From a virus (Duplodnaviria > Heunggongvirae > Uroviricota > Caudoviricetes): 64,000 nt of DNA. Shown here one piece after another: positions 10,527 to 50,593 of this stretch. The position numbers were made by a program, and so were the translations under genes. Each line of letters starts with the position of its first letter. Position 1 is the first letter of the stretch. The notes beneath the pieces are model-generated. The model was not told where the DNA came from. It searched no databases and saw only the letters and a list, made by a program, of their open reading frames with translations. The DNA lies in IMG/VR virus record IMGVR_UViG_3300037453_000505; one strand, 5' to 3'.

Positions 10527-10624
10527 TCTAATTGGAACGTCGGACGCCAATTTCTAAAGAGTCGACCACAATTGATTTGTGTGATTGTTTTTTATTGCAT
10601 TAGGGGGCTTCGGCTCCTTGATGT

Positions 10625-10715
10625 GGAGAGATGTCAGAGTGGTTGAATGTGGCGACTTGCTAAGTCGTTAACCGGGTGAGAAACCGGTTCGTAGGTTCGA
10701 ATCCTACTCTCTCCG
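10625..10715 (+). tRNA. tRNA-Ser (anticodon GCU), type II with a long variable arm.
   Basis: Cloverleaf folded by hand: acceptor ggagaga/tctctcc, anticodon loop ttGCTaa, long variable arm aaccgggtgagaaaccggttc, T-arm gtagg-ttcgaat-cctac. Confidence 0.75.
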
Positions 10716-10719
10716 AAGA

Positions 10720-10790
10720 TGGGAACTAGCCTAATGGTAGGGCAACAGGCTTTGAACCTGTGTGTCTAGGTTCGACTCCTAGGTTCCCAA
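10720..10790 (+). tRNA. tRNA-Gln (anticodon UUG).
   Basis: Perfect 7-bp acceptor tgggaac/gttccca, anticodon stem acagg/cctgt with loop ctTTGaa, T-arm ctagg-ttcgact-cctag. Confidence 0.75.
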
Positions 10791-10798
10791 AGTTATAT

Positions 10799-10875
10799 GC
10801 GGGTGTGACGTAATTGGTATAGCGTAGCAGACTTCAGCTCTGCCCGTACGGGTTCAAGTCCCGTCGCCCGCTCCA
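10799..10875 (+). tRNA. tRNA-Gly with anticodon UCA, which reads TGA codons.
   Basis: Acceptor gcgggtg/cgcccgc with discriminator U and an encoded CCA. Anticodon stem gcaga/tctgc with loop ctTCAgc. T-arm acggg-ttcaagt-cccgt. The GCGGG acceptor plus U73 are glycine identity elements. Confidence 0.75.
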
Positions 10876-10876
10876 T

Positions 10877-10953
10877 AGGAGATTAGCTCAGATGGTTAGA
10901 GCACTTGTCTGATATGCAAGGTGTCACTGGTTCGATTCCAGTATCTCCTACCA
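10877..10953 (+). tRNA. tRNA-Ile (anticodon GAU).
   Basis: Acceptor aggagat/atctcct, D-arm gctc-agatggtta-gagc, anticodon loop ctGATat, T-arm actgg-ttcgatt-ccagt, encoded CCA. Confidence 0.75.
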
Positions 10954-10956
10954 TAT

Positions 10957-11028
10957 GTACCAGTAGCTCAATGGTAGAGCAGTTGGCTGTTAACCAATTG
11001 GTTATAGGTTCGAGCCCTATCTGGTGCG
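10957..11028 (+). tRNA. tRNA-Asn (anticodon GUU).
   Basis: Acceptor gtaccag/ctggtgc, D-arm gctc-aatggta-gagc, anticodon loop ctGTTaa, T-arm atagg-ttcgagc-cctat. Confidence 0.75.
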
Positions 11029-11035
11029 GGATATT

Positions 11036-11112
11036 GTGAGTGTAGCTCAATTAGTTAGAGCGCTTGTTTGTGGAACAAGAGGTTGGGAGTGCGATTCTCC
11101 TCACTCACCCCA
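11036..11112 (+). tRNA. tRNA-His (anticodon GUG); no G-1 is encoded in the genome.
   Basis: Perfect acceptor gtgagtg/cactcac with discriminator C and an encoded CCA. Anticodon loop ttGTGga. The base at position -1 is T. Confidence 0.7.
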
Positions 11113-11118
11113 ATTTAT

Positions 11119-11189
11119 GGCGGTATCGTTTTATGCAGGTAAGACGGCCTGGTAATGGCAGAAATGTGGTGCAAGTCCCTTTGCCGCCC
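11119..11189 (+). ncRNA. tRNA-sized structured element of unresolved identity; possibly a degenerate or atypical tRNA.
   Basis: A 7-bp terminal stem ggcggta/tgccgcc encloses 57 nt with internal hairpins (gtttta-tgcagg-taagac; gcc-tggtaat-ggc). I could not fold a canonical D/anticodon/T cloverleaf by hand. It sits between tRNA-His and tRNA-Arg. Confidence 0.3.
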
Positions 11190-11193
11190 CTAT

Positions 11194-11267
11194 GTCCCCA
11201 TAGCATAATTGGATAATGCAACAGCCTTCTAAGCTGTGGATTGGTGGTTCGAGCCCACCTGGGGATA
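11194..11267 (+). tRNA. tRNA-Arg (anticodon UCU).
   Basis: Acceptor gtcccca/tggggat, D-arm gcat-aattggata-atgc, anticodon stem acagc/gctgt with loop ctTCTaa, T-arm ggtgg-ttcgagc-ccacc. Confidence 0.75.
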
Positions 11268-11290
11268 ATTTAGATTTAATTATTATAAAA

Positions 11291-13471
11291 ATGAGAACAT
11301 TACTATTATTTAGATGAGCACCTTGATGTGGAAAGTCTACATTTATAAAAGAACATTGATTAGAACCATACACTTTATGTGCAGATACTTTTAGAATGTT
11401 GTATTCTTCTCCTACATTATATGTAAATGGAGAGGTACATATTCCACAAAATGTAAATGGTGTCGCTTGGGATAACTTATTCTCTTGTCTAGAATATAGA
11501 ATGCAAAATGGAGAGTTTACAGTTATCGATGCTACAAATTCTAAAACTGTGGAGATGAATAAATATAAGAAACTAGCTGATGAATATAGATATAGACTTT
11601 ACATTGTCGATATGACAGATATTCCTATCGAAGAAGTAAAGAGAAGGAACAAACTTAGACCAGAATGGAAATGGGTACCAGAAGAAGCTATTGATAATAT
11701 GTACTCTAGATTTTCTACACAAAAAATTCCTAGCTGAATTAAAGTAATCAAACCAGAAGAGGTAAATGATTTATTAAGATGGAGAGCTGTAGAAATTCCA
11801 GACACATATAAAGAGGTAGTACACATAGGAGATATCCATTGATGTTATGAAACATTAATGTCTGCTCTACCTAATGGAATTGAAGAAGATAAATTCTATA
11901 TATTCCTATGAGATTATTATGAAAGAGGTCCAGAAGATGTAAAGACTTTAGACTTTATGGAAAGTATAATAGATTTGCCTAATGTTGTATGTCTAGAATG
12001 AAATCACGAAACTCATTTATGGACTTACGGTATAGGTAAAATCCCTAGAAGTAAACACTTTATGGGATATACTGTGAATGAATTAATCGAATGAGGATGG
12101 GATGCAAAAAGAATGAGAATATTTATGAAGAAATTACTTCAATGTTATTACTATACTTTCAAAGGTAAAACTGTTTTATGTACTCATTGATGAATAAGTA
12201 ATTCTAATTTTGAAGAATTGTTCCCATTAGGGTTAACTTGTCTTGCTACAATAGATTTAATTCATTGAGTAGGTTCTTACAATGATACTTGAGAATGTGA
12301 CAGTAACTTTGCTAAAGGAGATATATTAAGCTGTCACTGACATAGAAATATTGAAGATAAACAAATAGAATGAATAGCTAACCTAGAATGATGAGTTGAA
12401 TGGGGAAAAGAATTAAGAGTTGCTATACTAAATGATAAATTAGAAATAGTTAAATATCCATACAAAGATAGAATACCTTCTAAAGAAGAATTCTTCTGAG
12501 TGAAACAAGATATAACTGTGAAACAATTTATTGAGAGCTTAAGAAAAAATAAGTATATCAATGAAAAAAATGTGCAGTGAAATATAAGTAGCTTTAACTT
12601 TACTAGATGAGCTTTTAGCAGAAGCCATTGGGATAGAGAAACAGTTAAGGCTAGATGATTATTCATTAATACTAATACCTATAAGATAGTTGCTAGAGCT
12701 TATAATAAGTTCTTCAATGTAGATGAACAAAAGAGCACAATGCTATTTAGTATAGGACAAAATGCTCACTTCCCTATCGTTGGGTATAAGAAATATAATG
12801 GGTATTTGTGAATAATTTGATACGATGAAGAAAGTGATGAGTTAGTATTCACAAGTAAATCTGAAGTGGGTTGACCTCACGCTCAACGACTTAAAGAAAT
12901 AGTTATAGAGAAAGGTATAGACTTAGATAAGGTAAAAGACTATTTAAAAGAAAACTTTTGTTCATTAGTCTTTGAGGTAATTGACCCTGTGAATGATGCA
13001 CATATTATTAAGTATACTGAAAGAGATGTAATTCTATTAGATTGTGTAAAGAATACTATTAACTTTGAGAAACTAGATTATAATAGTCTATTAAAGTTAG
13101 GAGAAATACTTTGATTCACAGTGAAAGAAAAGTTAGTAGAGTTAAAAGATATGGTGGAGCTAAGAGAATGTATAGATGAATTACTTAATCCTAATTCAGA
13201 ATACAATACTTGAACTCCTATTGAATGAATGGTATTTGTTGACAAAGATGACTTTATGTTTAAGCAGAAATGAGAATACTATCAGCAATGGAAAAAACTT
13301 AGAGCTTTGATATGAGTAGTAGCAAGATGACAAAACTTTACTCATACTTGAATGTTGACAAATCCAGAGATGAATGAGTTCTATTGATGGTTAAAGGAAC
13401 AGGCTTTAACTTGAGAAGAAAACATTATAGAGCTTAGAGATAAGTTCTATACTAACAAAGCTATGATTAGC
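11291..13471 (+). CDS. Trifunctional Pnkp-like RNA end-healing and sealing enzyme with kinase, metallophosphoesterase and ligase domains.
   Basis: About 727 aa under code 25. The N-terminus carries a P-loop, LLLFRGAPGCGKST, with the first Gly encoded by TGA, and VIDATN, which is kinase-like (compare T4 Pnk). The middle region has GDIHGCYETL...FLGDYYERGPEDVKTL...CLEGNHE, the calcineurin-like phosphoesterase motifs GDxHG / GDxxDRG / GNHE. The C-terminus has ligase motifs I (KYNGYLG), III (SLVFEVIDP), IV (EGMVFVDK) and V (FMFKQKGEYY). This is the domain order of bacterial Pnkp. Confidence 0.7.
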
Positions 13472-13604
13472 TAACATAGGGAGTCGTCCACCTAGGCACG
13501 GACGGATAATGTGGGGTATCACACTGTAAATATTGGCTTTAGTATTAGTAATGCGAAGTACAAACATTATGAGTAGTAAGGTTGATATGATATATCTCCC
13601 CTTT

Positions 13605-16600: not shown

Positions 16601-16674
16601 AGGTACGTGGTGTAATGGTAGCACAGGAGCCTCCAAAACTCTTAGATTAGGTTCAATTCCTAGCGTACTTGCCA
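16601..16674 (+). tRNA. tRNA-Trp (anticodon CCA).
   Basis: Acceptor aggtacg/cgtactt (one G-U pair) with discriminator G and an encoded CCA. D-arm gtgt-aatggta-gcac. Anticodon loop ctCCAaa. T-arm ttagg-ttcaatt-cctag. Confidence 0.65.
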
Positions 16675-16697: not shown

Positions 16698-17672
16698 ATG
16701 AAAGTATTATCCCTATTCGATTGAATAGCTTGTGGGTATGAAGCTTTAAATAGAGCTTGAATACCTATCGAAGTTTACTATGCTAGTGAAATTGATAAGC
16801 ACGCAATTAAGGTAGCGACCACAAACCATCCAGACATTATTGAAATTGGTGATGTGTGTGAAGTAAAATGAGAAGACTATCAATGAGTTGACCTAGTTAT
16901 AGGTTGAAGTCCTTGTCAATGATTTAGTATGGCGGGTAAGATGTTAAACTTTAACGACCCCAGGAGTAAGCTATTCTTTGAATTCGTTAGATTAGTTAAA
17001 GAAGTAAAACCTAAATACTTTCTCTTAGAAAATGTGAAGATGAAGAAAGACTTTATCAATATCATTAATGAGCAATTATGGGGAATAACTCCTATAGAAA
17101 TTAATTCTGCTTTAGTGAGTGCTCAAAATAGAAAGAGATTATATTGGGTTGGTAAACTTCAAGAAGATGGGACTTATACTAAGGTAGAAATACCCCAACC
17201 AGAAGATAAATGAATTACATTGAAAGATATTCTACAAGAAGATGTAGATGAAAAATATATTTTAACACAAAAACAAGTTGATATGATTGCTAATTGGGGA
17301 TGATTTGAAGACCCAATCGCTAGTATCAAATGACCAGATGATAAGATGTGAACTCTCACTACACACTGTGGCAAGATGTCTAATGGGATTAAACTAATTA
17401 GATGAAGACCTATAATGCCATATGAACCAGGGCATAGAAGATTAAAATACACAACTTATATAGATAAATGTCCTACTCTTACTACAACTTGTGCTAGTGG
17501 AGACCAAAAGAATGTGGTATTAAATGGAGATGTAATTAGAAAATTGACACCTATAGAATGCGAGAGATTACAAACATTGCCAGACAATTATACTTCTGCC
17601 GCAAGTGACACACAAAGATATATCCAACTTTGAAATGGCTGGACGTGCGATATAATAGCACACATATTTAGT
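16698..17672 (+). CDS. DNA (cytosine-5)-methyltransferase.
   Basis: Motif I LFDGIACG (FxGxG). Motif IV GGSPCQGFS (PCQ, with the first G encoded by TGA). An ENV motif is present. AQNRKRLYWVG is QxRxR-like. The C-terminal PIECERLQTLPDNYT matches the conserved end of C5-MTases. About 324 aa under code 25. Confidence 0.75.
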
Positions 17673-17689
17673 TACTTAAAGTAGCAAAG

Positions 17690-20030: not shown

Positions 20031-20399
20031 TCAAAACAGGCCATATCCTTTTTGTAAAAAAAACTTGCAATTGGTATAAAATTCAGTATAAGATAATTGA
20101 TAAATTAATTTACCCAAAAACAAAAACAAAAATGAATGTAGTACCTCATATCCTTATGCAAGCGGGGGATATAATAAAAATGCCTTGAGGCTGAATGGAT
20201 TACTTTGTAAAAGTTGTCTGACTCGTAGAATGATATTTGCGAGTAGAACACAACAACAACAGATTCACTCTGCCTCGAGGTTTTTATTTAAAGAGCAAAG
20301 ATTATTACATTCCTTTAAAATAAAAAATGTGAATAGATTGACACCATTATCTATCCACAAATTCTTTTACTATATATATGAGAGCCGATGAACAACTAT

Positions 20400-25525: not shown

Positions 25526-25811
25526 AACATAATGGAGAAGCAAGATTTAGCTATAATAGACACTCTACAAAAGTTTTTAAGTAGATTTAATTGCGCCTTT
25601 TATTCAATAGAAGACCCTGTAAAAACTTTAGAGGAGTATTTTGATTTACATTCAGATTGAGACTGAATTATTTATGTTCACGTTAAAACTTCTGAATGAG
25701 AGTTCTCCCATTGATATATCTTAGATATAGATATGGCAGACTTACAATCTATTATTAATTGGCTAAAAAATTATACAAGAAATGTTTTACGTTTGCAATA
25801 TTGAATAGATG

Positions 25812-26328
25812 CCTAAAAAAAAGTTTGAATGATGGAAGCGAGATAGTATAAATGCTGAAATCATTGAAAATTCTGATAAGGCTATAGAAATTATTCTCTA
25901 CGGTTTTATACCTAGCAAGAAAAATAATCGTAGAAACTTCTGACGCATATCTTTACCTAGTGAAACCTATATAGAACGGCATAAGAGAATAGTGAACGTG
26001 TTATCTTGAATAGAGTGGGAATATAATACATTTCCCTGTAAGATAACAATAATATCTATAGCTTGAGATAGAGTTAAATCAGATATAGACAACCAAGCTC
26101 AATCTATATTCGATACATTTACAGACTTATGAATAATCCCAGATGATAATAGATTTATCGTCCAAGAGTTAAACATAAAGAATATGGGCTATGCAAAAAA
26201 TGCATATATGACTAAAGTTTTAGTCCAGCCTCTCAATGGAAGTCCCTACAATATAGAGCACGACCATAAAGGAGAGGACTTAAAAAAGTTCACACATTAT
26301 TTAGATTTATTTATTACCAATAATTAAT
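25812..26328 (+). CDS. RusA-family Holliday-junction resolvase.
   Basis: MPKKKFEGWKRDSINAEIIENSDKAIEIILYGFIPSKKNNRRNFGRISLPSETYIERHKRIVNVL...CKITIISIAGDRVKSDIDNQAQSIFDTFTDLGIIPDDNRFIVQELNI matches the RusA pattern (D-x-D-N ... DD). Confidence 0.6.
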
Positions 26329-37618: not shown

Positions 37619-37790
37619 TAATGGAATAATAATTATTATAAAATTACTTTACTGCAACATCTGAAACTATGGTTCAATTACTTCATCAACTTGAACTACT
37701 ACTAGAACTTGACGTAGACCTTCTTCAAGGGATATATTTTATTCAAGTTACTCATCACCATAGATTTCAGTTATTTGAGCTTTCTCGGCC

Positions 37791-39239
37791 TCTATTGGTT
37801 CTGATAAATGTATCAGATGAATAATAATTTCAAGGTCAATAATTACTTGCATCTACTTGTGTTGTACTTTGATTTGCTATTGTTCAAGTTCGTGGAAATC
37901 AATAGTTATTTCATCGTTGATAATACTTACCACAATTAGCCTCACTTAATGTATCTCCACTATTCCATACTGTAGTAGCTCACAAGTTTTTATCTGCTAT
38001 TGTTACCCAAGTTTGTCAGTCGCTACTTAAACTTATAAGTCAGTCTGTGCTACTCCAAAATATTCATCAGCTTTCTATACTTGTTCAATATAGTTTAGTC
38101 CAAGATGATGTAGGCACAGTTGGGGAATTCTTGAAACAACGGACAGAGAAAACGTAAGAACGGTAGTCGCTATTCTGGGGATTAAGAGCAGTCGAACTGA
38201 AGTATAGGTAGTAGGAGCGATTTGCATCGCTACGAGAAGAAGACCAATAGTACCCGCGGGTACCCTGACCGTCGATATTAGTAGTCAAGGGGTAACGTCT
38301 ACCAGCGAAAGGCAACTTCAACGCTATTCCAAAGTTAGTTCAATCAGAACTTCATCCACCTAAAGCTGTCCATATATCATATACAGCTTGCCACTCTGTA
38401 TTAAGTGGTACGTGAAACCCACTTGGACAAGGTCCCCTCATAGCAGAATAGTCCTTATAAGCGTGGAAAGTTCAAATCGCTCAATGAAGCTTCATATCAG
38501 GAGTTCCCCAAGTTCATTGGGTTACTCATCACCAAAGGTTATCATTTTGAACGGTACTCCAATCATAACTTCAAGTTCCTCTGAATGTATCACCCTCATA
38601 ATAATTTCAAGGTCAATAATTTGAAGCATCTACTCTAAAAGAAGTAGCAGGGATATTTCAACTATGTGCAAATCACAAATTATTACCTCGTTGATAAAAA
38701 TTACCACAGTTAGCATCTGTTAATGTATCTCATTGGTTATATACAGTTGTAGCTCATAGGTTTTTATCTTGTATCGTTATGGGATTTGTTCATACAGTTC
38801 AAGGAGAAATTGTTATAAGTCATAAAGCCTGATTTCGCCAAATTCACGTTTGTCAAATTCAAGGATTATATATTCTAGTCCAACTACTATCTGGTATTAC
38901 AGGCGCATCCTTGAAACAACGGATGGTAAACCCTGTAGAACGGTAGTTGCTCCACAGAGGGTCGATGCTAGACGAATTGAAGCCTAAACTATAGGCATAA
39001 TTAGCATTGTTCGGAGTAGAAGACCAGTAACCACCACGAGACCCCGCGCTGCTAACATTGCCGTCACTGTAGCTACGATATCCAGCCATAGGCATCTTTA
39101 AGTAAGTCCCCATAGTTGTGGCGTTCTGTGCCATTGAAAATGTAGAAGTAAGTATCCCACACAAAGCTGACCATTCACTCTGAAGTGGCACGTGAAACCC
39201 ATCTGGAGCTGGACCTTGTGTATCAAAATGTATTGCCAT
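37791..39239 (-). CDS. FISUMP (Fibrobacter succinogenes major paralogous domain, lectin-like) repeat protein of about 483 aa.
   Basis: ORF-track fragments 38859..39239 and 38085..38321 are joined by TGA=Gly into one frame, with a checked length of 1449 nt. It contains ...PAPDGFHVPLQSEW...GGYWSSTP...GFTIRCFKD, then ...ITIQDKNLGATTVYNQGDTLTDANCGNFYQRGNNLGF...CPSGFHVPLNTEW...GYYWSSS...SVRCFKN, then ...VTIADKNLGATTVWNSGD...CGKYYQRGNNYGFP... These are the FISUMP hallmarks IGNQxWMAENL, YGxLYNW, CPxGWHxPSxxEW, GYYWSST and GFSVRC. Confidence 0.65.
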
Positions 39240-40998: not shown

Positions 40999-41695
40999 AT
41001 TATTTATATTAAAATCAATATTTTTTCTTTGTTTTATTAAAATATTCTAATGTTTCTTGGGCTGTTCGCTTCTTATTTTCTACTATTACATTATTTATCC
41101 ATCAATTTACTATTCAGCTTCAACCAGGCCTTCATCATATATATAAATCAGAGCTTCACGTAGTTAAACTAACTGACTTACTTCAAATTAAACTTCAATT
41201 AAGATATATCTCTACAGTGCTTCAATCGTAAGTTGCTACCATATTATATCGGTTTCAAGTAGAAAGAGTAGTAGAACTTTCTATGTCGGCTGAGGATGAA
41301 TATCAAGAAAAAGCATAGTAATATCCACCGTTATCTCATAGAGAATAAAAGCTATAATTACTTTCACTTCATCGACATACAGCAGTTCACCAATTACTAC
41401 CATCTATTGAATAATATTTAAATCGAAAACTCAATGTTCTTGGTCAGTTTCAAGTAATTACAGCACTAGATAACCCATATAACCTTCATCAATTAAGCCT
41501 CACACATTTTACCCCTCATTCTGTAACTAGGCTAACCGTTCAGGTAGTAGTTAAAGTGGCTCAACTTATTTTATCTTTGTAATCATCTGTTAACGGCAAA
41601 TATATTTTTGTGTTACTTCAAGGAAACCATCCTCAAGGATAAATCTCATTTTCAACTCAATTCACATATTTAAAGACATTCTTAATTTTAGGCAT
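40999..41695 (-). CDS. LamG / concanavalin-A-like lectin-fold protein; candidate receptor-binding module.
   Basis: MPKIKNVFKYVNGVENEIYPGGWFPGSNTKIYLPLTDDYKDKISGATLTTTGTVSLVTEGGVKCVRLNGGRLYGLSSAVITGNGPRTLSFRFKYYSIDGSNWGTAVCRGSESNYSFYSLGDNGGYYYAFSGYSSSADIESSTTLSTGNRYNMVATYDGSTVEIYLNGSLIGSKSVSLTTGSSDLYIGGRPGG... shows the LamG_3 pattern (SFRFK ... W ... ATYDG-T-x-IYLNG). Confidence 0.5.
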
Positions 41696-41710
41696 AGGGT
41701 TATTTATTTT

Positions 41711-42196
41711 TTAAGTTAAAACTGTTACTGTTTTTCAACTTGAACTTTCATAATAAGTTCAATCAACAGAGGTGTCCCAATAAGTTGTTCGACTATTTCA
41801 ATCTCAGCTACATTCTAATTTTACTCCTGTATAATATCTACTATCTCAATAATAATTCCAAAATGTTATGGTTTCTATTTTATAAATATCTCATAAATCA
41901 ACCTGTAACGTAGAAGCTCCACTAAATCATATATATGTCCCCGTTGGGGATTCACTACCATTTACCCATCTTGAAAGTGCTGTACTATCTTCCCTTGTTC
42001 AACTAATCGCTGTAACGGTTTTATTTAACGCTACATTGGTTCAGTTAACAAAACATTTTATTTGTACATAATGAGTAGAGGCATTTCTACTATTGCTTCA
42101 TAAAGATAGCCTAACATATCTATATCACTTATTTCAAGGATATATTTCTTTTTCTACCCCCCCCCCTCGAATTAATACCCTTTTGATTTTAGGCAT
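41711..42196 (-). CDS. Small discoidin (F5/8 type C)-like protein with an in-frame G10 homopolymer near its 5' end; candidate phase-variable receptor-binding module.
   Basis: MPKIKRVLIRGGGVEKEIYPGNKGYRYVRLSLGSNSRNASTHYVQIKCFVNGTNVALNKTVTAISGTREDSTALSRWVNGSESPTGTYIGFSGASTLQVDLGDIYKIETITFWNYYGDSRYYTGVKLECSGDGNSRTTYWDTSVDGTYYE... Codons 11 to 14 are GGG GGG GGG G, which is plus-strand C10 at 42157..42166. Confidence 0.5.
42157..42166 (-). repeat. Homopolymeric G10 (C10 on the + strand) tract inside the 5' coding region of the discoidin-like gene.
   Basis: Counted directly: tttctaCCCCCCCCCCtcga. It is the only long G/C homopolymer I noticed in this AT-rich window. Confidence 0.85.
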
Positions 42197-42262
42197 AAGA
42201 ATTATTAATTTCAAAATAAATATAGAGCCTACATAGAATTTTCTATATAGGCTCATCTTTTT

Positions 42263-44991
42263 TAATATGTCATATATGCAACGTTCTCATCATAGCTAGT
42301 TAATGCAGCATATTCTGCTTCAGTACCTACCCAGATTTGACTTATAGATGTAGTTGTTCAAGTTGTATTAGATGTGATAGCTCAACCTCATCATCCACCA
42401 CCTCATCATTCAGGTTGTAATTCAAGGTTACCTCATATAGCAAGGAAAACAAACTGGTCAATTCCATCTGCCGTAAGGGTTGTATCTGTTTCATAAGGGT
42501 TAGTCACATTTGTTCAAAGTGTCATTTCATATGCAGTACTTCAATTCTCAACTCTTAATATGTAAGTCTGTCAATCCTTAATTGTAGCTGGAGCATTTAC
42601 TGTAAAGTTCGCACTTGGAGTATATGTTGAAGCTAAGTCAAGAGTAATTGTTGCTCAAGTCTTTGCTTGCCATCAGAAATCACTATAAGACATATCTCAT
42701 CCTCAAGCTTGTGCTACAGCATCGTCTACATATTTCTTAGTAGCTGGACTTCAATCATATTCTGGAGTATAAGGCGAAGAATAATCTTGTCAAGTAGCTA
42801 AGAAATATCAAAGTGCTTGAGTTGATGTACTTACTGCAGAAACTGTTTTAGAACTTCAACTTCAAGTTAACGTAAATACTATACTTATATGATATATTCT
42901 ACTTCTATTACCTGTACCAGTCACATCTCAAGTAGCATAAGCTCTTAAAAATGTAGCTTTACTAGAAGATACCGAATATAATGTATATATATTATTACCA
43001 TAATCCAAAACTGGTGTTTTTCAAGCTTTATACCAATCATAAGCTGCGATAGCATTTGTTAAATCTGATGTGCTAGCTATTGAAAATACCTTAACATTAG
43101 TAGCATCAGCTTTCCCTGATATAGTTGTATCCATTGCAGATATCTTATCATATACAGCATTCTTAGAAGGAGCTTCAGTTGTTACTCAATCCCAGCTAGA
43201 ACCGTAAGCTGTATCTGAAACTTGACTTGGATAACTTATATTTACCTCTGTAATTCCTGTTACTTGACCTAAAGTGTTCGTTGTTATCTGTGGAACTTTT
43301 GTAGCAGAACCTTTTGAAGTATATGCTGTTTGTGCAGTTAAAGCATCTTGCTTTCAACCGATAGTCGTATCCATAGCATTAATCTTATCATACACAGCAT
43401 TCTTTGAAGGGGCGTGAGTTGTATCAGCATCCCATCCGCTTCAATATGCCGCATCAGATATTGCACTTGTTCATAACTTACCATTGAAAGTTTGCCAATC
43501 TGCACTACTTAAATATCAATCATTACTAGATGTAGCAGCTCAAAGTTTAGTTTGAATTGTTGTCTTAGTTTCGTCTCAAGTATTTGTGTTACTTGTGTTA
43601 GAAAGTTTTGTCCTTTCTGCAGAAGTAAGGAATAAATTAGTAGAACCTTGAGTAATAGCATCACTTGTTTGAGTAGATGTATTAAAATAATTAGTTAAAT
43701 CTACAGAAGTTTCTCATATCATTACCCAAGTATTATTTGAGTAGATATATTCTTCGTATTTATCTTGTCCACTTCAAACAGGTCAAAGCAAATATATTAT
43801 TGTTGTTTTAATATCTGTAGTAGGCAATGTAGCTACAACTTTAAATCAAGCAAAGTTTGCTACATAATCAGCTACTTCTTGTTTTGTGTATGTTTCACTT
43901 TTTGTATAATAATTTGTTAAGTCGCTTACAGCCTTAGTAATATATCCAGCATCATTAGTTAATGTAGATACATTATCTAAAGGTTGAACTGCAGAATTAG
44001 CTTTAGTTCTAATAGAACCCAAATCTGATATAGTATCTTGCTTTCAAGCTATCGTTGTATCCATAGCAGATATCTTATCATAGACAGCGTTCTTTGAAGG
44101 AGCTATACCTGTTATTCAATCCCAACTAGCGGCATAAGCATCATCTGAAACTGCTCATTGTGTAGCAGCAGATATATTATCGTCTACATATTTCTTTGTA
44201 GCAGGACTACCTGCATAAACAGGTGTATATGGAGTTGAGTAATCTGTAAGCGTGTCTAGATAACTTCCAGCTCAATTTCAACTTCCATAATTTATTCTAT
44301 TAACAGTTCAATTATTTGTTAGTATAAATATTTTATCAAGACTTAATGAACTAGCATCGCCCATTCCATTATCCAAACTCCTTAATCAAGGGAAGATGAA
44401 AGAAATTCAATTAGTAGAATATGTTCAAGAAAAAATATATAGTCATTTTCTTTCAACTGGGTCAGATGGAGTATAATATACTAATGGGTTCTTACCTGCA
44501 TCATACCAATCATAAATATCTTGTGCTGTAGTTAAATCTGATGTTCAATTTAGATAGAAAGTTTTTGTATCGCTTTCTGGGATGGTAACAGCTCAAGTGT
44601 CTCAGTTTACAGAAGTAACTCAACTATTACTAATAGTCATATTACCACTACCAAACGTTAACCCTATTCAAGTACCTGCCACTGCTTTAGCTGCAGTATT
44701 TCTTACAACTACAGACCAAGTTCAGTTAGAATTTAGTTTATAAACATAAACTTCGTCTAATTGATTAGCTGCGCTATTATGGTCGCTTCTACTTCTATAA
44801 TATTGAAATTCAACTTCAGTAGGAGTTGTGGCATCATTTACATATGCCATAAATGCTAGTCTAGTTTGACTTCACGTAGCAGGATTAGAATTAGAAGAAG
44901 CTCTACAATAAACTACTCCATTCTTATTATAAGCAGTTATGAAATCATTCCAAGTCGAACTACCATAAGAAAGAATAACCATATCATCCTG
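42263..44991 (-). CDS. Large tail-fibre protein C (about 909 aa) with three internal about 35-aa repeats of the motif SWD-x3-APSKNAVYDKI-x-AMDTTI-x-GK-x-DA.
   Basis: N-terminus MVILSYGSSTWNDFITAYNKNGVVYCRASSNSN... Repeats ...AYAASWDGITGIAPSKNAVYDKISAMDTTIAGKQD..., ...AAYGSGWDADTTHAPSKNAVYDKINAMDTTIGGKQDA..., and ...TAYGSSWDGVTTEAPSKNAVYDKISAMDTTISGKADA... The C-terminal module ...PSANFTVNAPATIKDGQTYILRVENGSTAYEMTL... is shared with gene B. The start may lie upstream at a non-ATG codon. Confidence 0.5.
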
Positions 44992-45087
44992 TTTAGCATC
45001 CAAGGCATTTTTCAAGTCTGTTTGGTCTGCTAATGTTCAAGAAATATTTCACCATTCTGCACTTGTTTGTGTATTAGAAATTACATT

Positions 45088-47453
45088 ATTAGCGTCAATA
45101 CTAATTCAAGTACCTGCTGTATAAGTTGTATCTGTAGATGAGATTATAAAATTACATCATTGTCATTGACTTACTCATCATCGAAGATTGTTGTTTGATG
45201 TGCTTGACCAATCCCAATCTGAATCTCCATAGCTCCTTGTTATGAATGTACTTGAACTATAATAATTTCAAGGTCAATAATTTGAAGCATCTACTTGCGT
45301 TGAAGAAGTTGTTATAGTTCAACTATGTGGGAATCAATAATTATTTCCCCGTTGATAGAAGTATCAACTATTAGCATCACTTACCTCATCTCAGCTATTC
45401 CATACTTGTGTCGCTCATAAGTTCTTATCTTGTATTGTATACCAAGCAACTCCGTCACCACTTATTGAAATTAATCCATCTATTGTATTATGGAATATTC
45501 AAGCACCTGCTGCTACTGAACTTCAATCATATAATGTTGTCCAACTATTATCTGGAAGAACAGGAGTGTTTTTAAAACAACGTATAGATGCTGCATTAGA
45601 ACGAGCTATACTTGTAACTCTTGCTGAACCACTACCAGCTGAAATACAGTAAGCATCATAAGAATCTGATGCTGTCGATGCCCAATAATATCAATATCAT
45701 TGACTAGAGACACTACCGTCCGTCATTCAACGCAAACCAGCAAGAGTCATTTTTAAATAGTCTCTCAAAGTTGTATGGTAAGAAGGCAAAGATAATGTAG
45801 TGAATAATATTAAAAGTAACGCATCCCACTCATCTTTAGTAGGTACGTGAAATCCACTAGGTGCGGGTCATTGTGTATCCCATCCACATCTTTCTTCAAT
45901 AGTGATATTATCTCCTGCAGTAAGTTCACCCTGCTTAGCATCTAAAGCATTCTTTAAATCTGTTTGGTCTGCTAATGTACCTATAATATTTCACCATTCT
46001 GCACTTGTCTGTGTATTTGAAATTACATTATTATTTGAAATTGATATTCCAGGTCAGGCTGTATATGTTGTATCTGTAGAGCTAATAGTCTTTCAATCTG
46101 CAGCGATTTGAATATTTGTTCAAGCTATTAATTCATCTTGTTTTCAGCTCCAAGTAGTTCTAAGCCCTGTGCTATCAGCTAAGTCTTTTATATCAAAGTC
46201 ACCTGCTACATAAGTTGTATCTGTAGCAGAGATTGTTTTTCAATCTGCCGCAATTTGAATATTTGTTCAAGCTATTAATGTATCTTGCTTTGTATTGTCG
46301 TGATAAGCATCTGTTATATATCAAGCATCATTAGTTAATTCACTAATATTATCATTAGGCTGAATAGCTGTATCAGCTAAAGTACCTTGTGTTGCTGTAG
46401 CAAATTCACTTACATCGTGAGTAACTATATCTCAATAAGTTGCTATTGTATCAGAAGCTGATTTACCCGCAGAAGCGTTACTTCTAATAGTAGATAAATC
46501 TGATATAGCATCTTGTTTTCAATTAAAGGTTGACCAATCTGTTGAAGTTAGGTAACCATCGTTAGAAGATGAAGCTGCTCAAAGTTTTGTCTTTATTGTA
46601 GCATTAGTTTCATCTCAAGTATTTGTTCAAGTTGTGTTTCATAATTTAGTTCTTTCTGCTGATGTTAGGAATAAGTTTGTTACTCATTCTGTAATGTCAT
46701 CTGCAGTTCAAGTTAGCTGACTTAAGCTATCTCAAGGTTGAATAGATGTAGCTCATAAAGCTGCGCCACTTCTAATGGTTGCTAAGTCAAAAATTGTATC
46801 TTGTTTTGTTGTTAATGCTTGTGTGATTACTCTGTTTTCTACAGGGTTAGTACTTACTGAAGACATAGCCGTATCAATAGCTATAGGTCTTTCTGTATTA
46901 ATAAGTAATAACCATTGAGTTCAATCATACGTATAAAAGTCTCAAACCTTTACAGTTTGTTGCTCAACTACAGTAGAAGCTAATCAAGCAGTATATTCGC
47001 TACCATCTGGACGATAGTTAGTTCATCATTGAGCAGCGACTACACTTACTACATAGTAATCTCAAGCACGATATTGATATGGGTTATCTACAGGATTAGT
47101 CATAGGTAATCAAGTAGTACAGTTCCAGTTAGAAAGATATCTTCATCTAGAACCTGCGTTCTGTATATATTCATACAAAACCTTTCATTGCTTTGCGGAT
47201 AGAGCATCTGTAGTAGAAGTCGAATATAAGTTATCCTCTACTCAAGGTACAGATATATCAACAGCCTTATTCTCGTCTGGAGTTAATGCTTCTCAATTAA
47301 CTTTTACAGTTTCAATTACATTAACCTGAGCTCAAGCTTCTATACTATTGATTTTCTCCATAACACTATCTTCTATGGCGAACTCCTTTTTCTCCTTCTG
47401 TATAGAGGTTTCATCTGCAAAATATTGTTGACGTGCTTTTGGCATCAATCATT
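45088..47453 (-). CDS. Large tail-fibre protein A (about 788 aa) with an N-terminal STSTTDALSAKQGK fibre motif, internal repeats and a C-terminal FISUMP lectin-like domain.
   Basis: N-terminus MPKARQQYFADETSIQKEKKEFAIEDSVMEKINSIEAGAQVNVIETVKVNGEALTPDENKAVDISVPGVEDNLYSTSTTDALSAKQGKVLYEY... The C-terminus contains ...PAPSGFHVP... and ...YTIQDKNLGATQVWNSGDEVSDANSGYFYQRGNNYGFP... An in-frame stop follows at about 45088. Confidence 0.45.
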
Positions 47454-47574
47454 TAGTTAAATATTTAAATAGTATCTATATTTAGATTATATTTTTCTTG
47501 CGTTTATCTATAACAAAATAGCCACACCTATACATTAAGTATAGATGTGACTAAAATGTATTTTAATAATAATC

Positions 47575-47920
47575 ATATATTGTACCTCAAATACTTCATT
47601 GACTTCAAGGAATCCATACTTTTAAGACATCTCACGCTGATGCTGTATATGGTCATAAAAAATATTCATCGTGATAAGTTCAAGAAGTGAAATAATAATT
47701 AAACATCTCTACATCATTTAATGATAGAGCATATCAGTGCATACTTCATACTTTTACAAATCAAAGTCATCTGAATGTATATGTAGTAGGTCAAGAAAAA
47801 TTTGTCGTATGTACAGTTCAATATTCTTTACAAGCTTTTGCGAAAGCTCACATTGAGGCTCACGAAACTGATATATTTTTTATAATGCTAGTATCTACTG
47901 AAATAGCATCACTCACTATT
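47575..47920 (-). CDS. Small Gly/Tyr-rich protein between tail-fibre genes B and A; possible fibre chaperone or assembly factor.
   Basis: MGAFAKACKEYGTVHTTNFSGPTTYTFRGLGFVKVGSMHGYALSLNDVEMFNYYFTSGTYHDEYFLGPYTASAGDVLKVWIPGSQGSIGGTIYDYY. Coordinates approximate. Confidence 0.25.
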
Positions 47921-47997
47921 CAAGTTATCTCTCACCAAAGATTATTATTATTTGAACTATCCCAACCAGATGGGCTGGTTGTTCTAATTATAAATGT

Positions 47998-50564
47998 GCT
48001 ATTATCATAATAATTTCAAGGTCAATAACTAGAAGCATCTACTTGTGTAGACGAAGTAGTTACAGTTCAAGTTCGTGGAAATCAATAGTTATTTCATCGC
48101 TGATAATATTTACCACAATTAGCTTCACTTAATGTATTTCAATTATTATATACCGTAGTAGCTCATAAGTTTTTATCGGCAATAGTTATCCAATTATTAC
48201 CATCACTAGATATAGAAATAATTCATAATGATGGGCTATGATATATTCAAGAATTTCAGCTGCCCTGATATAATACTGTCCAATTACTATTTGGACTTAT
48301 TGATATATCTTTAAATGGACGAATTGAATTTGCATCTGAACGCCTACTGAATTGAGTAGGGTTTACAATATCCCCGAATTCAATATTATAAGCAAACTCT
48401 TCACCAGCGTGTGTGGATGACCAATAATATCCAACGTGTTCTTGATTAAACTCGTGAGAATCTTCATACCAACGACTTCCTGCAAACGGTATTTTTAAAT
48501 AAGTTTTAAAATCGCTTCATCAATTAGAATTCCAAGCTCATAAACTTACTCACATATCATATAAAGTTACCCACTCATCTTTAGAGGGTATATGGAATCC
48601 ATCATCACAAGGTCATTGCATAGCTGAATAATCGTCTCATATTATTATTCACTTTCAAGCATTATAACTTGTTGCTTCTGGGTCTCCTGGTTGTAACTCT
48701 AAATTTCAGCCCACGGCTAGAAATACAAACTGGTCAATACCGTTTTCAGTTAATGTTAAATCTTCGTTATAAGGATTAGTTATATTTGTTCAGAGTGTCA
48801 TTGTATAAACTATTGCTCAATTTGTCACCCTTAATATATATCTCTGTCAATCCTTTATAGAAGATGGAGCATTGATAGTAAAATTCGCAGACGGAGTTAT
48901 TGAAGTAGATAAATCTAGAGTAACTGTAGCTCAAGATTTATTCTGGAAATTGAAATCATTATATTTCATATCTCCATCTCAAACAATTTCCCAACTATCT
49001 CAATCCCATACCTTTAATATATTATTAGTTGTATCATACCAAAGCTGTCAAGTAACTGGATTAGAAGGAGCTGTAGTTCAAGATGTTATAGCGTTTTTAA
49101 CTTTATCATCTACATATTTCTTTGTCGTAGGACTTCAGTCATAAGCTGGAGTATATGTAGGTCAATAGGCACTATAGTTTACATCTGTACTAAGGAATTT
49201 TACTAGCTTTTGATTTTCATATGTGATACTTGTAACTACATCACTAGAGTAGTTTAAATCTAATCTAGTATTATGTATTTGTGTATCTCAATCTGCACTC
49301 ATTACAGAATATCCTGTATAAGCTTCATAGAATGATAATTTATCTCAATTAAGATGTGAATCTGAAGTGAGATGAAAGTTTGTTGTCTCATCTGTTCAGA
49401 ATACAATTATAGGATTATTTCAAGCTTTCCAATAATCATACGCCGCCTGTGCCTGAGCTAAGTCTGTAGCATCAGCCTGTGAAGCAGACTTTATGTAGAA
49501 AGCTTTTACATTTGTATAAGTATCCACAGGAGTCCAACTTGTTCAATTATATATTTTTAATATATGATTAGTTGTATCGTACCACAATTGTCATTCTGTT
49601 GGATTTTGTGGAGCTGCGCTTCAAGAAGAAATAGTATCTCATATACTATCATCAACATATTGTTTATTAGCTATAACTGTAGTATCTACAGAAAATTCAC
49701 CAGAACTAAGATTTAATCAATATCAAGCTGTATATGTAGTATCTGTATCTATAATATCCCAACTTGTTCAGTTATATACTTTTAATAAATCATTAGTTGT
49801 ATCATACCAAAGCATTCATTCTGTCGCAGGAGAAGGGGCTGTAGGTCAAACATATTTACTTCATTCTATTGCGTCATTAATAGCTGAAGCAACTTCTCCT
49901 GCAGTTTGATACCCTATGTTATTTGTTAATTCTGTGATATTATCTCAAGGTTGAATAGATGTAGCTCATAAAGCTGCACCTGCCCTAATAGTAGATAAAT
50001 CAAGAATATTATCTTGTTTTGTAGTAAGAGCTAAATAAACAGCTCTATTCTCTACGGCGTTCCTAGATGTAGGAGATAATCCATCGTCTATAATTATTTC
50101 TTTTACTTTATTAACCTGTAGTAACCATTGATTTCAATCATAGATATAGAAATCATTTACATTAACTTCCTCTGTCTCAACAGTCTGACTTGCTACTCAA
50201 GGAGTGTATACACTTCAATGAGGGCGATAATTTAACTGTCAAGTAGGTGCAACTGTAGCAACTATATAATAGTCTCAAGTTGCATATGTATGAGGAGAGT
50301 CTACTGGGTCTGTTACTGGCAATCAAGTAGTACAATCCCAAGAAGATAAATATTTATTTAATCAAGTTATTGCATTTATCTGGTCTTGTAATGCCTTACC
50401 CATATTAGCAGATAAGGCATCAGTTGTAGACGTTGAATTAATGTTGTCAATAACCCCAGGAATATTGTTAATTTTTTCTTCAATTTCCTGGGTTAATTTA
50501 TTGACACGCTTTTCCTTATCTGTATACACTCAATCTCAATTATATATTAATCTTGCGTCTGCCA
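47998..50564 (-). CDS. Large tail-fibre protein B (about 855 aa); paralogue of A (N-terminus) and C (C-terminal module), ending in a FISUMP-like region.
   Basis: N-terminus MADARLIYNWDWVYTDKEKRVNKLTQEIEEKINNIPGVIDNINSTSTTDALSANMGKALQDQINAIT... The internal ...PSANFTINAPSSIKDGQIYILRVTNGAIVYTMTL... matches gene C. The FISUMP C-half (PDGFH..., GYW...) and module lie at about 48005..48640. The stop, TTA on the + strand, is at 47998..48000. Confidence 0.45.
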
Positions 50565-50593
50565 TATTGTGTATTTAGATTAAGGAATAAAAA

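Follow-up and report, generated by a model that had tools for sequence, protein, structure and literature searches.

The locus

The DNA analysed here, referred to as the window, is a stretch of 64,000 nucleotides (nt) from a tailed virus (Caudoviricetes; IMG/VR record IMGVR_UViG_3300037453_000505). On its minus strand, the first small gene past a long tail fibre gene encodes a lectin-type protein of 161 amino acids (aa), and the 5' part of this gene contains a perfect run of ten G residues within a conserved leader (Table 1). We consider it probable that the run is a slipped-strand contingency locus, and we call the gene that carries it the switched gene. On the plus strand the run appears as C10 in the context TTTTTCTA-CCCCCCCCCC-TCGAATTAATACC.

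Table 1. Coordinates of the G tract, the genes around it and the tRNA that bears on their reading (positions in the window)
Feature	Position	Strand	Remarks
G10 homopolymer (slippage tract)	42157..42166	-	codons 11-13 GGG GGG GGG and first base of codon 14 (GTA); starts codon 11 in phase 0
Switched gene, 161 aa (code 25), discoidin/CBM32/F-type-lectin-like	41711..42196	-	ATG 42196 to TAA 41711
Conserved 21-codon leader, MPKIKRVLIRGGGVEKEIYPG	42134..42196	-	strand-turn-strand-like N-terminal module, tract at the turn
Hairpin, 13-bp stem followed by T-rich tail	42225..42254	-	intrinsic-terminator-like; between fibre stop and switched ATG; conserved in all relatives
Tail fibre, 1727 aa	42262..47445	-	Phage_fiber_rpt, Phage_tail_C tip domain, internal Fib_succ_major-like module
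Laminin_G_3 (ConA-like lectin) gene, 228 aa	41009..41695	-	E 5.6e-14; leader MPKIKNVFKYVNGVENEIYPG; no homopolymer
Two small genes, 351 aa and 219 aa	39262..40991	-	no Pfam match; present, absent or replaced in relatives
Phage tRNA, anticodon UCA	10799..10875	+	ARAGORN label 'SeC'; GCGGG… acceptor stem, U73 discriminator

A sequence-only reading of the window had singled out the run as unique, and rightly so: it is the sole G/C homopolymer of at least 7 nt in the 64 kb. Next in length come two runs of 6 nt and seven of 5 nt, and lengths of 7-9 nt are absent. By our own estimate from the GC content of 32.6 %, a G10 or C10 has a chance of about 2e-3 of occurring in a window of this kind. The three overlapping G8 matches observed compare with 0.02 expected, and none of 100 dinucleotide-preserving shuffles reached three. 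As is typical of contingency loci, a homopolymer of about 7 nt or more lies in the 5' part of an open reading frame (ORF) and is longer than composition predicts. The only other homopolymers of at least 8 nt in the window are two A8 runs. One of them (25815-25822, plus strand) supplies codons 3-5 (AAA AAA AAG) in an early gene of 172 aa (25809-26327, MPKKKFEGW…) and shares bases with the end of the ORF before it; shorter than the G run but likewise close to a 5' end, it is a second possible site of slippage. The other (20056-20063) is intergenic, and none of the related loci spans either A8 run.

In the window, where the tract follows CGA, lengths of 7, 10, 13 and 16 nt (3n+1) keep the gene in frame. 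Simulated loss of one G (G9) brings a TAG directly after the tract and leaves a peptide of 13 aa, gain of one (G11) yields 22 aa, and G8 and G12 are null as well. The frame of the domain offers no ATG, GTG or TTG within 40 codons of the window gene at which translation could restart. The earlier expectation that gain or loss of a single G would frameshift the protein is thus borne out.

Read with genetic code 25, in which TGA specifies glycine (see below), the switched gene contains 12 in-frame TGA codons. The 161-aa ORF with the tract at codons 11-14 that the sequence-only reading described exists under this code, which it had not named; under table 11 a stop falls 6 codons past the tract. 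The discoidin/F5-8-type-C label given to the product needed similar qualification. As a single sequence the protein matches Pfam F5_F8_type_C with an E-value of 2.3e-5 and 25 bits, below the cutoff of 28.2 bits, and a single-sequence search of the PDB returned no match. A profile built from 12 homologous sequences, by contrast, matched solved structures of F-type lectin, CBM32 and discoidin modules (E 4e-10 to 1e-7), the wider set comprising FBP32, chitosanase discoidin domains, Sm-hPAF, CBM32s, neuropilin b1/b2 and lactadherin C2 (E 4e-10 to 1e-3). In addition, PHROG 21973, annotated as 'tail protein', matches the switched protein with an E-value of 1.7e-15, in agreement with the proposed position of the gene in a tail-fibre cluster. 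Taken together, the sub-threshold Pfam match, the PHROG match and the profile matches identify the predicted protein as a galactose-binding-domain-like lectin module.

Between the two allele lineages described below, the dN/dS ratio (nonsynonymous to synonymous substitution) of the discoidin gene is 0.07-0.12 at a proportion of synonymous differences (pS) of about 0.18, the signature of a gene that is under purifying selection and functional. We rejected an upstream start at ATG 42256, which underlies a 181-aa model in the IMG and Logan gene calls (P0003): this ATG lies inside the terminator hairpin, and the segment from ATG to hairpin is also kept by relatives with gene calls from the MPKIK start (161 aa). 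A sigma-70-like match at 42214-42186 was also discarded as a promoter, as it would initiate transcription downstream of the ATG.

Tract length in related assemblies

A search of 5.8 billion proteins returned one close cluster (P0001, P0003 and P0004, called with code 4) and one further homologue, which is 43 % identical and has no leader. Look-ups of exact proteins return intact copies only. Tract states were instead sampled neutrally through the adjacent downstream gene family (P0005-P0028); this sampling is not biased to intact copies because out-of-frame (OFF) loci are reached through the neighbouring gene. All lengths compared are those of consensus assemblies.

In the relatives the tract is preceded by GGTATTAATT and then CGA, TGGA or TGGC, and is followed by TAGA[AG]. 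The CGA context (…GTA TTA ATT CGA-Gn-TAGAA…) is identical in the window and in three assemblies, L045, L048 and L052. Within it, the window and L045 have tracts of 10 nt, which are in frame (ON); L045 is a Logan assembly from another source and 100 % identical to the window over 6.7 kb. L048 (SRR16020861) has G9, which is out of frame and yields MPKIKRVLIRGGG-stop, a peptide of 13 aa. L052 (SRR31764248), a contig found in two samples, has G14, which is also out of frame and gives a 21-aa product. In both OFF genes the remainder is open in the other frame and free of a second lesion, and a change of 1 nt suffices for restoration: with G10, L048 encodes a 234-aa Laminin_G_3 protein (E 7e-10), and with G13, the L052 product has 224 aa and a domain of a third type, for which Pfam has no match.

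A second allele, ATT TGG A G9, was found in L007, L042, L043 and L044 and, via neighbour sampling, in L046 and L047, and L008 carries ATT TGG C G9. In these seven assemblies, which come from 7 sample or run accessions, TGG-[A/C]-G9 is in frame, and the total length is the same as in the CGA-G10 allele. Contigs of the L042 lineage were recovered again by neighbour sampling. The OFF state thus accounts for 2 of about 10 informative, neighbour-sampled loci. Window-type G10 comes from sequencing run SRR12681650 and L043 from SRR7340303; further source runs are those behind the assemblies ERZ27297585, ERZ27297592, ERZ27268086, ERZ27268089, ERZ28633672 and ERZ28633575. A derivation of CGA-G10 from TGG-A-G9 by compensated frameshift (deletion of a G, slippage by +1 and T>C) takes three events, as many as three substitutions, and was set aside as undecidable.

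As in contingency loci, tract length is polymorphic among close relatives, and length alone toggles an otherwise intact ORF between a full-length and a truncated product. The comparison of length variants in related assemblies that the sequence-only reading had proposed therefore supports its suggestion of a phase-variation switch: in an identical context, G10 is in frame, G9 and G14 are out of frame, and the OFF genes are otherwise intact.

Pattern searches added little. Three scans of IMG/VR for exact DNA patterns of the leader or tract gave nothing relevant, the three IMG/VR matches L049-L051 being chance intergenic ones. Two scans for such patterns in the 185,579 species genomes of GTDB likewise gave nothing relevant. 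A homology search with the leader peptide found a sole match, the 41-aa OFF product of L052. Protein-pattern matches were confirmed by standard-code tblastn, a step passed by 6 of the 12 viral candidates and by 30 of the 249 from metagenomes. All of these (L001-L006 and L012-L041) are standard-code phages that have only the discoidin domain in common with the window, and they are uninformative on the tract. This confirmation step has probably hidden true code-25 relatives, since the 12 in-frame TGA codons break a standard-code tblastn alignment.

The contig ends call for separate mention. L053, a Logan contig, starts with the Illumina adapter remnant CAGACGTGTGCTCTTCCGATCT (1-22) about 45 nt downstream of the expected tract site, and the ENA contigs L046 and L047 start 4 nt before the ATG. 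Assemblies tend to break near the leader; strain or length heterogeneity would fit this behaviour but is not proven by it. In the neighbouring gene family, the 199-aa homologue P0010 contains a conserved G7 run, at 560 in L055 and 5533 in L056, with equal length in both. The phage of these two contigs is a more distant code-25 phage and also encodes an integrase.

Codon choice at the tract

The window offers its own control for the way in which glycine runs are written. Its genes contain 11 runs of at least three Gly, of which ten use TGA, GGT and GGA and have G runs of at most 2 nt; only the leader writes its Gly run as GGG GGG GGG. GGG makes up 5.8 % of the Gly codons, so that three in succession have a probability of about 2e-4. 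The nine-Gly linker of the fibre (residues 1680-1688), which served as an internal codon-choice control, reads TGA TGA GGT GGT GGA TGA TGA GGT TGA, again with a maximum G run of 2 nt. Across leaders, residues 10-12 vary (RGG, WRG, YVN, YPD) while the G run is kept. By these sequence comparisons, the tract is a nucleotide-level rather than a protein-level feature.

The border of the tract also stands out. Of the 22 differences between the allele lineages, 3 fall in the 4 nt that abut the tract, where about 0.2 are expected by our own estimate; this excess suggests local instability there.

That the protein simply requires a Gly-Gly-Gly turn here, with the homopolymer as a by-product, is hardly credible given the variable residues 10-12 and the ten other Gly runs that avoid G runs, even though homologous leaders have a turn at this place (…LIYPDGV…) and G13-V14 is conserved across paralogues.

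Leader, cassettes and gene neighbourhood

The leader is common to the first two small genes past the fibre and to relatives with other C-terminal domains. Within the wider leader family, exemplified by MWYKLKRILIYPDGVTEKQVYP, the tract corresponds to the 'YPDG' turn. Three types of C-terminal domain were found behind leader and tract, namely discoidin-like, LamG-like and the third, Pfam-less type. Alignment of five locus types showed conservation from the fibre C-terminus through hairpin, spacer and leader to the tract, and a collapse of similarity about 25 nt past the tract, where the cassettes diverge, marking a recombination boundary. The cassette of the second gene is swapped as well: where the window has the 228-aa LamG gene, other phages of the group encode an unrelated protein of 189 to 195 aa. 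Some relatives add a 237-aa Gly-rich gene that is missing from the window (L007 2050-2763, L048 2524-3237, L052 2618-3331) and matches the Pfam glycine-rich domain ALK_LTK_GRD with an E-value of 1.2e-5, just above the cutoff.

The switched gene lies just downstream of the 1727-aa fibre gene and thus in the tail-fibre cluster, as the sequence-only reading had it. That reading had also described a paralogous LamG-like neighbour without the tract. The neighbour is indeed a LamG gene and has no tract, its equivalent codons being AAA TAT GTG AAT TGA GTT; the paralogy, in contrast, is limited to the N-terminal leader of about 21 aa. Between the hairpin and the switched gene we found no credible promoter, and for this reason expression of the small genes after the terminator probably depends on read-through and is reduced. 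Farther upstream lie additional fibre-like genes and one gene whose matches, to portal and head-tail-adaptor proteins, are weak. Three genes of the fibre cluster on the minus strand (37644-39239, 42262-47445 and 47563-50565) have a repeated module in common (…GPAPSGFHVP…DKNLGATTV…CGKYYQRGNNYGF…). In a 531-aa protein of the cluster, which also has a run of nine Ser close to its C-terminus, the module is present in two copies and corresponds to Fib_succ_major (E 2.4e-12).

Genetic code and predicted host

The window belongs to a code-25 phage, with TGA read as Gly in both the early (plus-strand) and the late (minus-strand) gene block. Treating TGA as a sense codon raised the amount of DNA in ORFs of more than 150 aa 12-fold, from 4.7 kb to 55.7 kb, and recoding of TAG or TAA gave no comparable rise in the window. 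Calling ORFs with table 11, which at the tract gives only a 40-aa ORF (40-60 aa in the region), was dropped after this gain. TGA codons outnumber TGG codons 670 to 196. Code 4, in which TGA specifies Trp, is ruled out by composition (5.9 % Trp and 3.3 % Gly in the proteome under code 4, as against 1.4 % and 7.7 % under code 25) and by motifs in which TGA occupies an invariant Gly: motifs I, IV and X of a C5 methyltransferase, a Walker A motif (G-x-P-G-x-GKST) and the metallophosphatase motifs GDxHG, GDxxxRG and GNHE. The phage encodes a tRNA with anticodon UCA whose acceptor stem and discriminator base we take to be glycine-type identity elements. This tRNA reads TGA as Gly, which keeps the switched ORF open. 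The phage has a tRNA-Trp(CCA) of its own as well, at 16601-16674, and the tRNA cluster spans 10624-11268. In practice, standard-code tools fragment the genes of the window, the switched gene included.

The use of code 25 points to a host among the Absconditabacteria or Gracilibacteria. Code-25 phages have been predicted for both groups (Liu et al., 2023, mBio, PMC10746230, from its abstract and outline).

Two observations concern the genes next to the tRNAs. Right after the tRNA array, the ORF at 11216-13474 (plus strand) combines an AAA_33 kinase, a Metallophos phosphatase and a T4-type RNA ligase 1 and resembles a Pnkp/Rnl-type tRNA-repair enzyme. Its start overlaps tRNA-Arg (11193-11268), and translation probably begins 25 codons downstream instead, at the Met of MRTLLLF. 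A C-5 cytosine DNA methyltransferase (PF00145, E 7e-52) is encoded at 16698-17684 (plus strand), immediately after tRNA-Trp; a longer ORF call from 16578 crosses the tRNA-Trp gene.

Interpretation of the tract

Tract lengths of 9, 10 and 14 nt in an identical context in different samples support the reading of the G tract as a slipped-strand contingency locus in the leader of the first lectin-type gene past the tail fibre, and we regard this as the probable explanation. Polymerase slippage during phage DNA replication would continuously yield a mix of ON and OFF genomes, presumably at a high rate and reversibly. The 21-residue leader would attach the lectin module to the fibre or to the baseplate. 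Progeny would then be mixed for a carbohydrate-binding accessory protein, which would hedge adsorption against variable host glycans. The position of the gene and its domain type suggest that the switch affects adsorption and host recognition.

Several points weigh against this reading. The OFF observations number two, both from single-run Logan assemblies, and runs of G9-G14 are error-prone on Illumina. The length evidence is an assembly consensus with one length per assembly, and the TGG-context allele is stable at G9 in the consensus of all seven. Retention of the tract at pS of about 0.18 has a chance probability of about 0.56, considering the three third positions, and is not significant by itself. 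Gene order and domain type are what suggest virion association and receptor binding. Finally, the more distant code-25 relatives, of which about 100 kb were sampled, contain no G/C run of at least 8 nt, which speaks against a general strategy; because these relatives have no such tract, the sequences identify it as a lineage-specific feature.

The alternative we take most seriously, although we think it unlikely, is that the tract is a non-adaptive hotspot and the OFF copies are decaying loss-of-function mutants of a dispensable accessory gene rather than states of a selected switch. The small share of OFF loci fits this view, as does the free gain and loss of cassette genes at this site among relatives; reversibility, moreover, is an expectation of the switch, and distant relatives manage without the tract. 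A mere hotspot, on the other hand, does not sit well with a tract that persists in two alleles and ahead of three cassettes, when a synonymous TGA, GGT or GGA, the phage's usual choice elsewhere, would abolish it. The OFF ORFs, too, are free of a second lesion, and the ON gene has a dN/dS of about 0.1.

It is less probable still that the length differences are sequencing or assembly artefacts, with G9 in L048 and G14 in L052 miscalled and the true tract always in frame. Illumina chemistry is known to handle long G runs poorly, both OFF contigs stem from Logan single-run short-read assemblies, and L053 starts with an adapter remnant. Yet the Logan assembly L045 reproduces the G10 of the window and 6.7 kb of flanks at 100 %, the other allele has G9 in all of its seven assemblies, which were made with different pipelines, and the G14 contig comes from 2 samples. 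To report G9 for G10, or G14 for an in-frame length, errors at the level of the consensus and not of single reads would be needed.

A programmed recoding site, at which a ribosomal -1/+1 frameshift or transcriptional slippage would yield two products or fix the level of expression in place of a heritable switch, seems very improbable. G GGG GGG formally fits the slippery pattern X XXY YYZ, and long homopolymers can cause RNA-polymerase slippage, by which OFF templates may be leaky. The alternative frames, however, stop after 13-22 aa and offer no second product, and the length of the DNA itself varies between populations. Folding of the region gave the upstream terminator hairpin as the sole strong structure, in a calculation that was not aimed downstream of the tract.

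A bolder extension of the contingency-locus reading, which we consider doubtful, is that leader and poly-G together form a portable 'dock-and-switch' module and make up a combinatorial host-range system in code-25 phages of Candidate Phyla Radiation (CPR) bacteria. The fibre end, the hairpin and the leader would serve as a homology anchor for swaps of lectin cassettes about 25 nt downstream. Lectins that share the leader (discoidin, LamG and others) would be rivals for a single docking site of the fibre, and the tract would decide stochastically which of them takes it. If true, this would imply that the uncultivated code-25 CPR hosts present variable surface glycans.

Comparison with known systems

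Small genes that directly follow a long fibre gene, are exchanged as cassettes and determine or assist receptor binding are familiar from the gp38-type adhesins of T2 and from Tfa of Mu and P2. The switched gene resembles them in size, position and cassette exchange. These genes, in contrast, vary by recombination or inversion (Gin/Cin) and have no homopolymer, and docking through a leader is predicted for the present locus. We detected no homology of the locus to the gp38/Tfa systems.

The surface genes that serve as contingency loci in Campylobacter, Neisseria and Haemophilus share with the switched gene a poly-G tract near the 5' end of the ORF, an ON state at one length class with early termination otherwise, and a product that acts in surface interactions (predicted in our case). 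The locus described here differs in being viral: a particle owes its phenotype to the genomes that replicate in the cell producing it, so that genotype and phenotype of a virion can uncouple.

In phages, contingency loci are reported for T2, T4 and others in a preprint that argues for their generality among phages and finds them depleted in coliphage tail-fibre genes (Gomez, Barrick & Waters, 2025, bioRxiv 10.1101/2025.10.21.683753). The concept is the same, i.e., short homopolymers in phage ORFs slip at replication and cause reversible frameshifts as a form of bet-hedging. The T2 and T4 loci are mostly runs of at least 6 nt in genes of many functions, whereas the window has a single long and unique G10 in a gene of the tail cluster. 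The code-25 phages of Liu et al. (2023, PMC10746230) use TGA for Gly throughout their genes, like the phage studied here, in agreement with the code of the presumed host. That study is concerned with coding strategy and CRISPR-based host links, and its abstract and outline do not refer to homopolymer switches.

The closest parallel is found in Fletchervirus, phages of Campylobacter in which poly-G tracts of 7-11 G in the genes for receptor-binding proteins (RBPs) diversify the phenotype (Sørensen et al., 2021, Cell Rep 35:109214, as summarised in PMC11959909 and bioRxiv 10.1101/2025.10.21.683753). According to these summaries, poly-G phase variation of phage host-recognition genes is proven experimentally only in Fletchervirus, and one review speaks of an 'exceptional case'. 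In both systems a homopolymer of the G7-G11 class lies inside a host-recognition gene (predicted in ours), shifts the frame through its length and stands out in an AT-rich genome. Mixed phenotypes among the progeny, demonstrated experimentally for Fletchervirus, would be expected here. The two differ in phage lineage, in predicted host phylum and in genetic code, and only the present tract is placed in a portable 21-codon leader common to exchangeable lectin cassettes. A blastn search (word size 11) with positions 41000-43000 against 50,697 phage records gave no match and hence no homology to Fletchervirus. The PHROG matches of the locus are generic tail-protein domains; the locus would thus work like the Fletchervirus RBPs and is not a member of their family.

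Poly-G switches of RBPs are thus already known, and what is new here is the code-25 lineage, the natural ON and OFF alleles and the location of the tract in the leader of exchangeable cassettes. The locus represents an independent, non-homologous candidate in an uncultivated lineage, with ON and OFF alleles visible in public assemblies. It bears on whether bet-hedging of adsorption proteins extends to phages of CPR bacteria, and it suggests that the hosts, about whose surfaces next to nothing has been described, carry a carbohydrate receptor.

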